Assembly (NCBI GenBank): GCA_035493235.1
Contig: DATJIP010000106.1
Span: 26,610 to 90,609 of the forward strand
Direction of reading: 5' to 3'
Source: Steroidobacteraceae bacterium
Lineage (GTDB): Bacteria; Pseudomonadota; Gammaproteobacteria; Steroidobacterales; Steroidobacteraceae
Length of the DNA: 64,000 nt
Below are positions 5,224 through 11,240 of the stretch, piece after piece. Below the pieces are notes generated by a model. That model did no database searches. It saw only the letters and a program-made list of their open reading frames with translations, and was not told the DNA's origin. Numbering within the stretch: position 1 is the first letter of the stretch; every line of letters starts with the position of its first letter. The translations under genes and the position numbers were made by a program.

Positions 5224-6315
5224 TCAGAGAACGACGACCGAGCGGATCGACTCGCCGCGCTTCATCATCTCGAAGCCCTCGCCGATCTGCTCGAGCTTGA
5301 GGCGATGCGTGACCAGCGAATCGAGATCGATCTTCTTGTCGACGTACCAGTCGACGATCTCGGGCAAGCGGCCGAGACGCGCGCCGCCCATGTAGCAGCC
5401 CGTCCAGTGACGACCCATCATCAAGCTGCCCGGCGGCGCGGTGACTTCGGCGCCATGCGCCGCGACGCCGATGACGTAGCTCGTGCCCCATGCAGGGTTG
5501 GTGCTTTCGAACGCCTGGCGCATGACCTGCGGATTGCCGATGCACTCGAACGTGTAATCGGCGCCGCCGCCGGTCAGCTTCATCAGGTGGCTGGTAATTT
5601 TCTCCACCTTGCGCGGATCGACGAACTCCGTCGCACCGAACTTGCGCGCAATCGCTTCCTTGCCGGGATTGGTGTCCACGCCGATGATCGTTTTCGCACC
5701 GGCGAGACGCGCGCCCTGCACGACGTTGAGTCCGATGCCGCCGAGGCCGAACACGACGACCGAGCTGCCGCGCTCGACCTTCGCTGCAAACAGCGCCGCT
5801 CCGAGGCCGGTCGTCGCGCCGCAGCCGATGTAGCAGATCGGATCGAACGGCGCGTCGTCGCGCACCTTCGCGATCGTGTCCACGGGCAACACGGTGTACT
5901 CAGCGAACGTGCCTAGTCCCCACAGCTGCGTGACTGGTTTGCCGCCGAGCGAGAAGCGGCTTTCGCGCGGGCGCAAGCGCGCGAACGCTTCGACGCACAG
6001 GTTCGTCTTCGGCGAATTGCAGTACGCGCACTTTCCGCATTGTGGAATGAGAAAGGGAATGACGTGATCGCCGACTTTGAACTGCGTCACGCCGGGTCCG
6101 CATTCGATGACGACGCCCGCTGCCTCGTGGCCGAGAATCGCCGGAAATTGCCACGGGACTTTGCCTTCGTAGGCGTGCAGATCGGAGTGGCACAGGCCGG
6201 TCGTCTTCACCTGCACGAGCACTTCGCCGGCGCGCGGGCCTTCCAGCTGTACTTCTTCGATGACGAAAGGCTGATTCGGGCCGTGCACGACGGCCGCGCG
6301 GACATTCAACGGCAC
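5224..6315 (-). CDS. Zn-dependent alcohol dehydrogenase, class III-like
   Basis: GLCHSD, GHEAAG, CGKCAYC...NLC, GLGGIG. Confidence 0.9.
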   Translation of the reverse strand: MPLNVRAAVVHGPNQPFVIEEVQLEGPRAGEVLVQVKTTGLCHSDLHAYEGKVPWQFPAILGHEAAGVVIECGPGVTQFKVGDHVIPFLIPQCGKCAYCNSPKTNLCVEAFARLRPRESRFSLGGKPVTQLWGLGTFAEYTVLPVDTIAKVRDDAPFDPICYIGCGATTGLGAALFAAKVERGSSVVVFGLGGIGLNVVQGARLAGAKTIIGVDTNPGKEAIARKFGATEFVDPRKVEKITSHLMKLTGGGADYTFECIGNPQVMRQAFESTNPAWGTSYVIGVAAHGAEVTAPPGSLMMGRHWTGCYMGGARLGRLPEIVDWYVDKKIDLDSLVTHRLKLEQIGEGFEMMKRGESIRSVVVL

Positions 6316-6405
6316 GCGGAATTTCCTTTTGCGATGGTGTGAGCGGAGGGACTTTACACCATCGCCCCGGCGCGGGCGCTGCGGGTCAGCGTCAGCCCGA
6401 CATGA

Positions 6406-7671
6406 TCATTCTTTGCATTCCGCCTGGTGCATCAACGCCGCCATCGCGTCGCAGAGATTGACGCTTGCGGTCTCGCCTTGCGACGTTTCCACTTTGCGGC
6501 TCGAGCGCGCGAGCAGATCGCGTGCGGCGTCCGCTCGGAGATTGCGATCGCGCGCGAGCAGCAGGGCAACACCGCCCGACACGCTTGCCGCAGCGAGCGA
6601 GCTGCCGGACAGGAAGTCATAGCGACCATCCGGCACCAGCGTCAGGACTTCGCTGCCCGGCGCAAACAGCACTGAATCCGCGGATGCCCGGGTACCTGCA
6701 GCATCGACGCCGATGACACCGGGGATTGCGGTCGGAAAGCCATTGTCTTCGGTGTTACGCGGCGTGGCGCCCACGAACACAATGCCGCGGCGAAGGCCCA
6801 CCTCGACCAGCCGCGTCAGCAACGGATCGGCGGGACCGGCGAGACTGAGATTGACGATGTCCATGTGTGCTTCGACGGCAGCGGCGAGCGCTTTGGCAAG
6901 CGTCAACGTACTGCAAACGGCGCGAGCATCGTCGCCCGCAGCCGGCCAGCAAGCGCGCATCGAGTAGAGCCGCGCGGCCGGGGCGATGCCGACGATACCC
7001 AGGCTGTTGTTCTCGACTGCCGCGATCACGCCGGCGACAGCAGTGCCATGACGATCGCGACCGCCTTTGCTGCCGTCGACGAAGTTTTCCTGCTTGACGA
7101 CGCGACCGGCGAGATCGGGATGAGTCGTGTCGATGCCGGTGTCGATGATCGCCACGCGAACGCCTTCGCCGCGCGACCACAGATGCGCACCGGTGACGTC
7201 CATGATGTCGAGGTTTTTCTGCAGCGGCCGATACGGATCGCCCGTCGCCGTACCCGTGTCGTTCGTCAGCGTCGAGAACGACTGATAGGGCTGCGCCGAC
7301 TCCACGCGCTTGTCCCGACGCAATCGTTCGAGCGCGGCCTCGCGGTTGGCACCGGCGGGGAGTTCGTACACGATGCAGTGAATGCCGAGCAAGCCGATCG
7401 GCCAAGCGGTGACTTCACGCAGACCGTACGTGGTCGCGACCGCTTGGGCGCTCGCGCGTGTCGCTGGAGCGAGCGAATACGACGGCGGCGGCTCGTAACC
7501 ACGCACGGTGGAGCCGGCGCGCGGCATCGATGGAGCCGTGTCGTTGCGCAGAGTGACGACGACGAAGCGAGCGGGATCGGATTGCACCGCCGGCTCGACC
7601 GGCGTGCTCGGCGACGTGGCGCAGCCGGCCAGCAACGCGACGCAGCCGAAGATCAGCCACAGACGTTTCAT
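6406..7671 (-). CDS. S8 (subtilisin-like) serine peptidase, lipoprotein
   Basis: Lipobox LLAGC; catalytic IIDTG, HGTAVAG and SGSSLAA motifs. ATG 7671 overlaps the anti-sigma stop. Confidence 0.88.
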   Translation of the reverse strand: MKRLWLIFGCVALLAGCATSPSTPVEPAVQSDPARFVVVTLRNDTAPSMPRAGSTVRGYEPPPSYSLAPATRASAQAVATTYGLREVTAWPIGLLGIHCIVYELPAGANREAALERLRRDKRVESAQPYQSFSTLTNDTGTATGDPYRPLQKNLDIMDVTGAHLWSRGEGVRVAIIDTGIDTTHPDLAGRVVKQENFVDGSKGGRDRHGTAVAGVIAAVENNSLGIVGIAPAARLYSMRACWPAAGDDARAVCSTLTLAKALAAAVEAHMDIVNLSLAGPADPLLTRLVEVGLRRGIVFVGATPRNTEDNGFPTAIPGVIGVDAAGTRASADSVLFAPGSEVLTLVPDGRYDFLSGSSLAAASVSGGVALLLARDRNLRADAARDLLARSSRKVETSQGETASVNLCDAMAALMHQAECKE

Positions 7672-8387
7672 TGTGCCTCGGATGCCACCGCTGGCTCTGC
7701 GAACATGACGCGGCCGTCCGCACGCAGCTGCGCGATTGCCTTCTCGACACCAGATTTGTCTGCGGCGCCGGCCGCGAGACCCAGTGTGTAGACGCCGGCC
7801 TCGCTCGGCCCCGCGATGATCTGCGCATCGATCGCGCGCAGCACTCGGTTCATGTCGTCGACGGCGACATCGCCGGCAAACACGACGCGAATCACCGGTC
7901 CGTGCATCACGGTTGCGGTCGGCGTCGTCAGCACGTTGTAGCGGCCGGCGGTGAGGTCGTCGTGAGTTTGCGCTTGCGTCCACAGTGCGGCCAGCAAGCC
8001 CGCGATCGCGATGCCTTGTATGGCGGCAGCGATCGGCAGCCAGCGCGACCAACGGGTCGGCTCGCGGCGTGCGGCAGCGATCGGCGCGACAGTCGCAGGC
8101 GCTTCGATCTCCAGCTCCTCGTCGTCCAGGTCGGGAACGGCATCGATGCGCTGCATGAGTTTCTGCAACGAGGTTTGCGGCGCCAGCACGATCGCTTCTT
8201 CGGAGCGAATCGCGTTACGCAGCTGACGCTGGAATTCCAACTCGTCCTGGCATTCGCGGCAGTCGCGCAGATGCCCTTCGACGCGTGCAACGTCTTTGGC
8301 CGCCGCGCTCTCGTTGGCAATCCAGGGCAGCAGATTCCAGCACTCGCCGTGAGCGCCGAGAGGTCCAGTGTGGTCGCTGTGTGTCAT
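7668..8387 (-). CDS. Zinc-binding anti-sigma factor (zf-HC2) with TM helix and extracytoplasmic domain
   Basis: HLRDCREC (HxxxCxxC), one TM segment, directly downstream of the ECF sigma. Confidence 0.85.
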   Translation of the reverse strand: MTHSDHTGPLGAHGECWNLLPWIANESAAAKDVARVEGHLRDCRECQDELEFQRQLRNAIRSEEAIVLAPQTSLQKLMQRIDAVPDLDDEELEIEAPATVAPIAAARREPTRWSRWLPIAAAIQGIAIAGLLAALWTQAQTHDDLTAGRYNVLTTPTATVMHGPVIRVVFAGDVAVDDMNRVLRAIDAQIIAGPSEAGVYTLGLAAGAADKSGVEKAIAQLRADGRVMFAEPAVASEAQ

Positions 8388-8395
8388 TGCGCTGA

Positions 8396-9001
8396 TTACT
8401 TTTTACCGCCGGTCTGATTACCGCCGGCGAGCCGAGGCAGCGAACGGCGCAGCTTCTCGCGTGCGTGGAACATCCTCGTCTTCACCGTGTTGACCGGGCA
8501 TTGCATGATCGTCGCGATCTCCTCGCAGGAGTGGCCCATCAGGTACGAGAACTCCATCACCATGCGCTGCTCGAGCGGCAACTCTGCGAGTGCCTGCCCA
8601 AGCCACTGACGGTTCTCGTCCTCCAGCTGCGCGTCCGGCGCAACTGCCACGTCCTCGACCACGAGCATCGGTCGGGGCGTACCGTGCCGACGCAGCGCTT
8701 TCAACGCCCGCCGGTACGTGATGCCGACGATCCAGGTCGAGACCAGCGAATCGCCGCGAAAGTCTCCGGCCTTCAACCACACGGTCCACAAGGTGTCATT
8801 GATCACTTCCTCGATGAGGTCGTGACGCGAGGTCATTCGCATGAGGAAACGCGCGAGCCGGCGGTGATAGATCAGGTACAGCTCTTTGAAAGCCGTTCTA
8901 TCGCCCGCAGCGACCTGGCGCAGCAGCTCGAGCTCGCGAGCGTTCGAGGAACTGCCGCTGGACGTACCGAGTGAATGACCGCTGGAAGGCACCGAGTTCA
9001 T
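8396..9001 (-). CDS. ECF RNA polymerase sigma factor
   Basis: Region 2 (AGDRTAFKELY...EEVINDTLW) and region 4 (SCEEIATIMQCPVNTVKTRMFHAR). Confidence 0.92.
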   Translation of the reverse strand: MNSVPSSGHSLGTSSGSSSNARELELLRQVAAGDRTAFKELYLIYHRRLARFLMRMTSRHDLIEEVINDTLWTVWLKAGDFRGDSLVSTWIVGITYRRALKALRRHGTPRPMLVVEDVAVAPDAQLEDENRQWLGQALAELPLEQRMVMEFSYLMGHSCEEIATIMQCPVNTVKTRMFHAREKLRRSLPRLAGGNQTGGKK

Positions 9002-9023
9002 TTGCAGCCGTGACCGTTGTGAT

Positions 9024-9052
9024 TGAGTACCCGGGGAGGGGGGTCCGGTTCT
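9024..9052 (-). promoter_or_regulatory. Putative ECF promoter AGAACCGG-N14-GTACTCA upstream of the sigma gene
   Basis: Ends 22 nt upstream of the sigma ATG; near-identical copy with the same spacing at 10457-10485. Confidence 0.65.
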
Positions 9053-9770
9053 AGAAGCGCCAGGTCAGAGCCGCCGTCCAGCGGGGGCTGCTGTCGAACA
9101 GACGCTTCGCCGTGTCGTCGGTATCGATGTGCAGCAGGTCGACCTGCATGCTCTGGTACGTGAAGGCGACTCCGGCGCTCCAATACCAGTAACCGGTGTC
9201 AACCAGGTCGCGCAGATCGTAGTAGCCGGCGCCGGCGTAGACCGACCAGTTCGGATGCAACGGCTGCAGCAGCGAAAACTCGTACGCAAGCGCCTGCTTG
9301 TCCGCGACGAGGCCCCAGTAGGTGTGCTTGGACGTATTCGGCGACCAGGAGACGCTGGCGGTCGCGCGCTGCTGATAGCTGACCGAGGCGCTGACCTCGT
9401 CATAGTCGTAGCCGGAGTCGTTGTCGTTCAAGTACGCGTAATGGACGTACGAGAGCTGGCTCGACCAGTCGGGGCTCAGTTGCCAGGTGTAGCCGGCTTG
9501 CAGATCGAGCTCGAAGGCGCTGTTGGCGCCGTTCTGGAAGTCGACGCTCGAGCCCCACATGCCGGCATTCCAGCCGTTGGACGAGTGGAATTGCACGCCC
9601 GCCTGCGCCGCAGGCTGGTCATCCGTCTGCGAGATGCCGCGATAGAGGTAGTCGGTGGTGAACGCGACCGACCCGGTCACGTCCGCGGCTGCAGTCGGCA
9701 GTGCGGGCAATAGGCAGCCGAGCAGCGCCACCGCTACGGTGCTCGTTACAGTGCTCCTAGGCGCTAACAT
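9051..9770 (-). CDS. TorF/TIGR02001-like outer-membrane beta-barrel (putative porin)
   Basis: Signal peptide; TTDYLYRGISQTDDQPAAQAG motif; C-terminal Phe. Confidence 0.8.
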   Translation of the reverse strand: MLAPRSTVTSTVAVALLGCLLPALPTAAADVTGSVAFTTDYLYRGISQTDDQPAAQAGVQFHSSNGWNAGMWGSSVDFQNGANSAFELDLQAGYTWQLSPDWSSQLSYVHYAYLNDNDSGYDYDEVSASVSYQQRATASVSWSPNTSKHTYWGLVADKQALAYEFSLLQPLHPNWSVYAGAGYYDLRDLVDTGYWYWSAGVAFTYQSMQVDLLHIDTDDTAKRLFDSSPRWTAALTWRF

Positions 9771-9840
9771 CGCCGCATCCGCGCAAGTCTCCCTGCGCGA
9801 GTATACGGCGATGTCCGGGACGACGGGGTGACCCTTCGTT

Positions 9841-10407
9841 CTAGTGTCTTCCGTGCCTTTCGTCAGTCTCGATCACGCCGCGGGCCTCGCCGCCCAGGAA
9901 TTTCGCGGAGTGAACGTTGGCGTAGGTATTGCCGCTCACGATCGCTTCCACCAGCTCGTCGAACTCGTTGACCCCATTCTGCGACGGCGCGATGCCCTGG
10001 CCGTTCGGGCCCACGATGTTCGCCGCCGTGAGTTCGCCCCTCACCGTTGCCGGGGAGGGCGGACACGCGGGCGGTTGCGGGAACGCGGCCGGCGGTACGT
10101 TCGTCCCGTTGCCGCACAGGAACACACTCACGCCGCCCAGGGTGTGGCGTTGACCGAAATGGATATGCGCCTGCGTGGGCGCATCCTCCAGGCCCTCATA
10201 GGTCAGCTCGTAAGAAATTGTCTGGTTTTCCCGATCGATCGTCGCCTTGAAAGTGCCGTGCGCGCCGGACGAGATCGACGGAACTTCGTTCTCCGGGACC
10301 AGCTGGGCGAACGCGCGGATCGTGCGATGACGGTCGCCCGCGGTGACACCGAGGGCGAGCATGGCGAGAGATATCCCCAAAGCGGGCAGCAGGGCTCTGC
10401 GAAGCAT
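9841..10407 (-). CDS. CHRD domain-containing secreted protein
   Basis: Signal peptide; NEVPS, QAHIHFG, YANVHS..F.GGEARG; GGAGG RBS before ATG 10407. Confidence 0.85.
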   Translation of the reverse strand: MLRRALLPALGISLAMLALGVTAGDRHRTIRAFAQLVPENEVPSISSGAHGTFKATIDRENQTISYELTYEGLEDAPTQAHIHFGQRHTLGGVSVFLCGNGTNVPPAAFPQPPACPPSPATVRGELTAANIVGPNGQGIAPSQNGVNEFDELVEAIVSGNTYANVHSAKFLGGEARGVIETDERHGRH

Positions 10408-10456
10408 GACAGACCTCCAAGTCGGTATTGTTCGAAGTTGTGAAGTGCGCAAGGCG

Positions 10457-10485
10457 TGAGTGCTCGGCTGGAAATCGCCGGTTCT
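10457..10485 (-). promoter_or_regulatory. Putative ECF promoter AGAACCGG-N14-GCACTCA upstream of the CHRD gene
   Basis: Matches the 9024-9052 motif in sequence and spacing. Confidence 0.65.
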
Positions 10486-10592
10486 CGCTGCGCACGGCGA
10501 CCGAAAGAGGTTTCATCGTCCTGTCATGCACGAACTACAGTGCAGGTCCTGCGCTGCAGTTACAATGCGCGCCGGGCTGCACAAGGGCACCG

Positions 10593-11240
10593 ATGACCAC
10601 CGACCATCCTTCCCTCGACACCCTGCTGGAGCGCAATCGCTCGTGGGCCGAGCTCATGACGAGCTCCGATCCCGATTTCTTCGCCAGGCTGGCGCGGCAG
10701 CAGGCCCCGCGTTACCTGTGGATCGGCTGTTCCGACAGCCGCGTGCCGGCCAATCAGATCCTCGGGCTGCTGCCCGGGGAAATCTTCGTCCATCGCAACG
10801 TCGCGAACGTGGTCGTGCACAGCGACCTGAACTGCTTGTCGGTCATTCAATTCGCGGTCGACGTACTGAAGATCCGGCACATCATCGTGTGCGGTCACTA
10901 TGGCTGCGGCGGTGTCGCGGCCGCGATGCGCGACGACAAGCTCGGGTTGATCGACAACTGGCTGCGCCACGTGCAGGACGTGCGCAATCGCAATCGCGAC
11001 GACTTGGGAAAGTTGCCGGACGAGCCCGCCCGACTGATGCGGTTGTGCGAGCTCAACGTTCTGTCGCAGGCCATCAACGTCGCGGAGACGACGCTGCTGC
11101 AGGACGCGTGGTCACGCGGGCAGCCAGTGGCGATTCACAGCCTCATCTACGGACTCGAGAACGGCATCCTGCACCAGCTCGGTCCCTCGCTCGAGGAGCC
11201 GAGCGCAGTCGAGCAGCGCAAGCGCGCGCTCGGTTGGTGA
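10593..11240 (+). CDS. can: Beta-class carbonic anhydrase
   Basis: GCSDSRVP, HRNVAN, GHYGCGG. Confidence 0.93.
   Translation: MTTDHPSLDTLLERNRSWAELMTSSDPDFFARLARQQAPRYLWIGCSDSRVPANQILGLLPGEIFVHRNVANVVVHSDLNCLSVIQFAVDVLKIRHIIVCGHYGCGGVAAAMRDDKLGLIDNWLRHVQDVRNRNRDDLGKLPDEPARLMRLCELNVLSQAINVAETTLLQDAWSRGQPVAIHSLIYGLENGILHQLGPSLEEPSAVEQRKRALGW

Follow-up and report, generated by a model that had tools for sequence, protein, structure and literature searches.

In a 64,000-nucleotide (nt) stretch of the genome of a Steroidobacteraceae bacterium (assembly GCA_035493235.1, contig DATJIP010000106.1, positions 26,610 to 90,609; hereafter the window, by which we mean the whole stretch), two minus-strand copies of a bipartite motif, AGAACCGG-N14-G(C/T)ACTCA, precede the genes of a sigma factor of the extracytoplasmic function (ECF) type and of a secreted CHRD-domain protein. 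Both copies are, very likely, promoters that RNA polymerase recognizes when it is bound to the sigma factor of this locus (8396-9001). The copies, AGAACCGGACCCCCCTCCCCGGGTACTCA at 9024-9052 (P_sigma) and AGAACCGGCGATTTCCAGCCGAGCACTCA at 10457-10485 (P_CHRD), agree at 14 of 15 motif positions and have the same N14 spacer, and the surrounding regions are otherwise unalike. An earlier note made from the letters of this DNA had described the pair, and a check of the sequence bore out its coordinates, strand, 14/15 agreement and equal spacing. The exact pattern had no other occurrence in the 5,958,850-base pair assembly and is unique to the two window sites. That transcription begins at these sites and depends on the sigma factor is what we infer from their sequence, their position and their co-occurrence with the sigma gene.

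The minus strand of the window carries five closely packed genes in the order CHRD protein, porin, sigma factor, anti-sigma factor and S8 peptidase (Table 1). P_sigma ends 22 nt ahead of the sigma ATG codon (9001) and P_CHRD ends 49 nt ahead of the CHRD ATG codon, within the gap between the CHRD gene and a divergent carbonic anhydrase gene. The sites have the geometry of ECF promoters: they can be written as (A/T)GAAC(C/T)-N17-(C/T)ACT(C/T)A, with an AAC-containing -35 element and a spacing of 16-17 nt. The -35 block of P_sigma overlaps the TAG that ends the porin gene (9051-9053), such that this copy begins inside the stop codon. The stop codon thereby doubles as -35 bases, being read as TAG/AACC here and as TGA/ACC in relatives such as L031, L041 and L043.

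Conservation was assessed in a comparative set of sigma orthologs from 35 loci having 40-96% protein identity, in which we searched for TGAAC(C/T)-N15-17-G(T/C)AC(T/C)(T/C)A with at most two mismatches. The motif was directly upstream of the sigma gene in 30 of the 35 orthologous loci; of the others, one is cut by a contig end. The promoter is co-oriented with the sigma operon, and two more loci, those of genomes G019 and G021, carry a copy before the first gene of the operon. These two have neither a gap between the porin and sigma genes nor a motif there, and their sole copy lies ahead of the CHRD gene. Hence, these genomes would have a five-gene operon in which autoregulation proceeds via the CHRD promoter. 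A second copy was present ahead of the CHRD gene in all ten CHRD-carrying relatives, where it has the form GAGAACCG...GAGCACT(C/T)A and the upstream flank diverges; where the CHRD gene is absent, the copy is ahead of the porin gene. Spacer sequences and flanks vary between loci, and what stays is the two blocks and their spacing. From end to end the element measures 29 nt at 50 of the 63 sites; 12 others have 30 nt, and a single one has 28 nt.

The motif also co-occurs with the sigma gene across genomes. A survey of 41 genomes of the genus with the pattern WGAACY-N15-RGYACTYA gave 67 matches versus 35 for the control, the same pattern read backwards. Thirty-eight of the 67 matches were within 3 kb of a sigma ortholog, and the other 29 correspond to the background level. 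The pairing is kept in other phyla: the trio of sigma, anti-sigma and S8 peptidase genes, with TGAACC-N16-G(G/C)AC.. sites upstream of the sigma gene, was found in Novosphingobium, Phenylobacterium, Acidobacteriota and Thermoanaerobaculia. The geometry of the sites, their conservation down to 40% sigma identity and a genus-wide excess confined to the sigma locus all support the proposal of the earlier note, namely that the sigma factor has its cognate, autoregulated promoter here.

A real regulatory site could nevertheless have another reader, either a different ECF sigma factor or a DNA-binding regulator that travels with the locus. ECF-like candidates number in the dozens in this genome (a first look scored 40), and this sigma factor is linked to the sites by sequence, position and co-occurrence. 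However, it is this one sigma ortholog that the motif follows through genera and phyla, the six genomes without the sigma gene gave a total of two matches, which is background, and the nearest paralogs in the same genome are no more than 33% identical to it. Moreover, no regulator gene besides those of the sigma and anti-sigma factors is conserved at the locus. The element lacks symmetry, its spacer is fixed in length and free in sequence, and it always faces the downstream gene. Asymmetry, fixed spacing and orientation are typical of promoters, not of sites bound by dimeric regulators, and we regard another reader as unlikely.

Given the conserved sites of the relatives, a position weight matrix (PWM) was trained on the relatives only and used to score ~11.9 million positions of the genome. 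P_sigma ranked first (26.2 bits) and P_CHRD second (22.9 bits). The next site had 20.2 bits, and the maxima in shuffled genomes were 20.1-24.2 bits. The genome-wide motif scan that the earlier note had put forward as a check returned the two window sites as its top two. Sites of 20 bits or less match the maxima of shuffled genomes, and thus the PWM scan by itself cannot extend the regulon.

Several results weigh against the assignment of both sites to this sigma factor. First, the resemblance of the twin copies is by itself weak evidence. With up to two mismatches allowed, the pattern would be expected 0.18 times per window, a figure that is post hoc. For an unbiased control, 150-nt segments of the same genome were drawn at random in 200,000 pairs, and in 1.2% of these the two segments had in common an identical 8-mer together with a 7-nt block agreeing at no fewer than 6 positions, at equal N10-20 spacing (p ~0.01). 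The resemblance hence becomes decisive only together with position, orientation and conservation. Second, a PWM built from distant relatives (sigma identity of 60% or less) placed P_sigma third genome-wide, inside the range of the shuffled genomes, and P_CHRD outside the top ten. The distant sites begin with TGAACC and those of this clade with AGAACC. As the distant-only PWM is less discriminating, the genome-wide discrimination relies in part on the closer relatives. Third, the -10 core (C/T)ACT(C/T)A differs from the textbook CGT-type -10 element of ECF promoters. Finally, a clear Shine-Dalgarno sequence is missing from the predicted leader of the sigma gene, which is 16 nt long.

The regulon very probably extends beyond the operon. 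Two lower-scoring sites of the scan were accepted only after checks of ortholog conservation, and these argue that the same sigma factor also drives two unlinked genes, encoding a TIGR03118-family secreted protein and a 200-amino acid (aa) secreted protein that gave no NCBIfam family match (Table 1). The motif was 70-115 nt upstream in 13 of 13 genus orthologs of the TIGR03118 protein and was kept in all five orthologs of the 200-aa protein. The earlier note had drawn the regulon from the twin sites; these stand, and the limitation to them does not, given the two conserved copies on other contigs. The distal sites further indicate that the first G of the -10 block as originally drawn is unconstrained. 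The core refined in this way, GAAC(C/T)-N17-(C/T)ACT(C/T)A, has five matches in the genome, four of which are the promoters described here. In close relatives the leader of the TIGR03118 gene holds a conserved hairpin, CTCGCG-N8-CGCGAG.

Other candidate sites in this genome were rejected. Those at C165:14497, C149:42523 and C229:28378 apparently lie within open reading frames and were unsupported as regulon sites. The site at C181:17567, which precedes genes for a TPR-like secreted protein and a cytochrome c peroxidase, has a deviating -10 block and was likewise unsupported, and that at C132:9080 was left unsupported. In two relatives an identical motif copy is found ~135 nt before the gene of a Tat-signal protein (L105:3325-3844, from G029:C33, and G032:C137:5059-5087), which when judged by eye from its sequence resembles a high-potential iron-sulfur protein (HiPIP).

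Cultured members of the family carry further copies. Steroidobacter and Peristeroidobacter have a back-to-back divergent motif pair ~2.4 kb upstream of the sigma gene (loci L050-L058 and L079-L089; for example, L057:2333-2526). One unit of the divergent pair encodes a lipoprotein with a Big_7 domain, two CHRD domains and, at its C terminus, a CxxCH module; the porin gene comes next in this unit. The opposite unit encodes a PSCyt1-like CxxCH lipoprotein and a Porin_O_P-like barrel that bears CxxCH near its N terminus. The CxxCH genes hint at a periplasmic redox or heme theme. The genome studied here has neither the CxxCH lipoprotein/barrel pair nor the double-CHRD lipoprotein. The same circuit, with three to four motif copies, was found in Peristeroidobacter soli JW-3, Steroidobacter agaridevorans SA29-B, S. 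flavus and S. gossypii.

A second alternative is that only P_sigma functions, as an autoregulatory promoter, and that the CHRD and distal copies are weak or non-functional look-alikes. The -10 regions of P_CHRD and the distal sites (GAGCACTCA, GTCACTCA and GCTACTCA) do depart from the genus consensus GGGTACTCA, and P_CHRD and the two distal sites score 22.9, 17.8 and 19.4 bits versus 26.2 bits for P_sigma. However, each variant is kept at its orthologous position in 5-13 genomes while the flanks diverge, and in G019 and G021 the sigma operon has the CHRD promoter as its only copy, which makes this alternative quite improbable. It is most improbable that the blocks are conserved for a reason other than initiation (as an RNA element or a terminator at the 3' end of the porin gene, or under a coding or stop constraint) with the second copy a coincidence: the porin stop overlaps the P_sigma -35 block, several of the spacers are rich in GC and contain short inverted repeats and the twin match alone could arise by chance at the frequency given above, but the same blocks occur in purely intergenic settings (the CHRD/carbonic anhydrase gap, the Steroidobacter divergent pairs and the unlinked genes), the operon strand yielded no terminator-like site, the spacer sequence is unconserved and hence no common RNA fold is kept, and where the porin and sigma genes have been separated (L035 and L045-L049) the blocks remain with the sigma gene.

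Promoters dependent on this ECF sigma factor remain the best reading of the twin sites, and the transcripts they would give can be outlined. A scan of the operon strand from 6000 to 10800 found neither a sigma-70-like promoter nor a terminator. As there is no terminator between the porin and sigma genes, the transcript from P_CHRD probably reads on into the sigma operon, and the two transcripts would be nested. The earlier note had envisioned two transcripts, one for the CHRD protein and porin and the other for the sigma factor, anti-sigma factor and peptidase. Its gene groupings hold, and the separateness of the transcripts probably does not, in light of the missing porin-sigma terminator and the single copy in G019 and G021.

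The circuit that we propose begins with a resting state, deduced from domain content, in which the co-transcribed zinc-type anti-sigma factor would hold the sigma factor at the inner membrane. A signal from the envelope or periplasm would free the sigma factor, and we speculate that the lipoprotein S8 peptidase passes this signal by acting on the prodomain-like periplasmic domain of the anti-sigma factor. The freed sigma factor would then bind the -35 element (A/T)GAACC and the -10 element (C/T)ACT(C/T)A, 17 nt apart, and start transcription at four promoters. P_sigma would raise the levels of the sigma factor, anti-sigma factor and peptidase, a positive feedback that carries its own brake, and the transcript from P_CHRD would encode the secreted CHRD protein together with the TorF-type porin.

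Table 1. Predicted promoters and genes of the sigma locus and of its distal sites. Coordinates are those of the window unless preceded by a contig label; aa, amino acids; TSS, transcription start site.
Feature	Coordinates	Strand	Details
P_sigma, ECF-type promoter (predicted)	9024-9052	-	-35 AGAACCGG 9045-9052; -10 GTACTCA 9024-9030; predicted TSS ~9016-9019
P_CHRD, ECF-type promoter (predicted)	10457-10485	-	-35 AGAACCGG 10478-10485; -10 GCACTCA 10457-10463; predicted TSS ~10449-10452
Secreted single-domain CHRD protein, 188 aa, signal peptide	9841-10407	-	Pfam CHRD PF07452, E 1.4e-19
Gcw_chp/TorF-family outer-membrane porin, 239 aa	9051-9770	-	Pfam PF09694, E 6e-25; TIGR02001 111 bits vs cutoff 47
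ECF sigma factor, 201 aa, sigma-2 and sigma-4 only	8396-9001	-	Pfam Sigma70_r2, Sigma70_r4_2, Sigma70_ECF; TIGR02937 77 bits vs cutoff 43
Single-pass anti-sigma factor, 239 aa, HxxxCxxC motif	7668-8387	-	Weak NCBIfam anti-sigma/RsrA matches, below cutoff
Lipoprotein S8 (subtilisin-like) peptidase, 421 aa, prodomain-like N-terminal region	6406-7671	-	Pfam Peptidase_S8, E 7e-29
Beta-carbonic anhydrase, divergent from CHRD	10593-11240	+	
Third motif copy, AGAACCGC-N14-TCACTCA	C135:41450-41478		68 nt before the TIGR03118-family secreted protein gene (C135:41546-42682)
Fourth motif copy, AGAACCGA-N14-CTACTCA	C215:5209-5237		33 nt before the 200-aa secreted protein gene (C215:4576-5175)

The gene arrangement is compact. 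The anti-sigma gene starts 8 nt past the sigma stop codon, and the start codon of the S8 peptidase gene overlaps the anti-sigma stop codon (ATGA). The CHRD ATG codon (10407) has a GGAGG ribosome-binding site. The CHRD leader (10408-10456; ...GCTGCGAACTTCGCAACTTCGAACAA...GGAGGTCT) is conserved in close relatives beyond the promoter, and there it contains the short palindrome GCGAA/TTCGC. A sequence search with the CHRD protein returned no solved relative. Another CHRD-domain coding region is present in the same genome (C133:4124-4369), and the scans made gave no motif copy near it. The publicly named relatives of the organism belong to the Steroidobacteraceae.

The 201-aa protein is an ECF sigma factor by its content: of the sigma-70 regions it has only Sigma70_r2 and Sigma70_r4_2, and its TIGR02937 score is above the cutoff. 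The nearest solved structures are those of AlgU (6in7) and E. coli sigma-E (1or7), and no paralog above 33% identity is encoded in the same genome. The anti-sigma factor has an N-terminal zinc-type domain (H39-x3-C43-x2-C46), a transmembrane helix at ~117-145 and a periplasmic domain at 165-232. An AlphaFold2 (AF2) model predicts an N-terminal helical bundle at 11-83, and residues H13, H39, C43 and C46 are invariant in 23 orthologs. Given the motif and the location of its gene beside that of the sigma factor, the protein has the features of the class I zinc-binding (ZAS-like) anti-sigma factors, the binding of zinc being putative. The S8 peptidase gene adjoins the sigma and anti-sigma genes in every relative, including those of other phyla.

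The periplasmic domain of the anti-sigma factor is modeled as a beta-alpha-beta-beta-alpha-beta fold (AF2 model, predicted local distance difference test values of 86-97). Subtilisin and furin/PC1 prodomains were within the top 20 PDB matches (template modeling score 0.64-0.70), a list in which no match reaches E<=1e-3 and in which EF-1beta and ACT domains, other ferredoxin-like folds, rank equal to the prodomains. The domain, which ends ...VMFAEP, also gave a weak hhalign match (probability 46%, P 2e-4) to the N-terminal region of the peptidase (...RVESAQP). These comparisons suggest that the periplasmic domain may be a prodomain-like sensor that is bound or cut by the S8 peptidase. Action of the peptidase on this domain is thus our working hypothesis for how the signal might be passed.

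The mechanism itself is a standard ECF autoregulatory circuit and in that sense unsurprising. The P2 promoter of E. coli rpoE is GGAACTT-N16-TCAAA and the promoter of B. subtilis sigW is TGAAAC-N16-CGTA. Like the RpoE, AlgU and SigW promoters, the promoters proposed here are bipartite, and an AAC-containing -35 element is set at a rigid distance of 16-17 nt from a short -10 element. As in those systems, the motif is directly upstream of a sigma/anti-sigma operon, which implies positive feedback, and also precedes a few genes for envelope or secreted proteins. The -10 element is where they part, (C/T)ACT(C/T)A here versus TCAAA and CGTA in rpoE and sigW. The proteins differ as well: the sigma factor scores 78.7 bits against the RpoE equivalog TIGR02939 (cutoff 236), the anti-sigma factor is of the single-pass zinc type with HxxxCxxC and without an RseA match, unlike RseA and MucA, and an S8 peptidase takes the place of the S1C protease (DegS or AlgW, with RseB or MucB) as the conserved partner. 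Score, anti-sigma type and protease type thus place the protein outside the RpoE/AlgU-type ECF groups (ECF01-04).

A second comparison is with ECF54 of the Actinobacteria, the conserved context of which includes a subtilase, a carboxypeptidase and CHAT proteins (PMC8999054). That group was described without an anti-sigma factor, and proteolysis was proposed to act on the sigma factor itself (PMC8999054). Like ECF54, the sigma factor studied here is constantly accompanied by a subtilase, and a gene for a TPR-caspase (Peptidase_C14) near the sigma promoter in L064 and L065 recalls the subtilase/CHAT context. In these two relatives from other families (L064:2829-4821 and L065:2552-4788), a 250-aa lipoprotein without a Pfam match is encoded divergently from the sigma promoter and is followed by the TPR-caspase. 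However, every locus of the present family that was examined has a membrane anti-sigma factor between the sigma factor and the peptidase, and the organism is a gammaproteobacterium of the Steroidobacteraceae rather than an actinobacterium. The sigma factor is therefore set apart from ECF54 by its genomic context, in which an anti-sigma factor is present.

In the literature that we were able to search, there was no paper on a link between ECF sigma factors and CHRD proteins or on a prodomain-like or subtilase-linked anti-sigma sensor, and nothing specific on TGAACC in combination with ECF sigma factors. It is conceivable, and we advance it only tentatively, that these loci represent an undescribed cross-phylum ECF signaling family in which a dedicated lipoprotein subtilase, in place of a protease of the DegS or Prc type, gates the sigma factor by binding or cutting an anti-sigma factor with a periplasmic sensor that copies the prodomain of that same protease, and in which the regulon of CHRD, TorF and TIGR03118 proteins gives the CHRD domain a context.

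The element GAAC(C/T)-N17-(C/T)ACT(C/T)A stays with one sigma family from the Steroidobacteraceae to the Alphaproteobacteria and Acidobacteriota. In this genome the predicted regulon is small, with at least four promoters and seven genes, and would join the CHRD protein, the TorF-type porin and the subtilisin-like protease with two genes elsewhere in the genome. Almost every product is a secreted or envelope protein of unassigned function: the CHRD protein, the Gcw_chp/TorF porin, the TIGR03118 protein and the family-less 200-aa protein. The cultured carriers make the sigma-promoter pair and the role of the S8 peptidase directly testable, and the pair is a candidate orthogonal sigma/promoter part. 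If the signaling family outlined above is real, its regulon, including the CxxCH lipoproteins and the CxxCH barrel of Steroidobacter, would for the first time place bacterial CHRD domains in a functional setting, possibly that of redox or metal stress in the periplasm.

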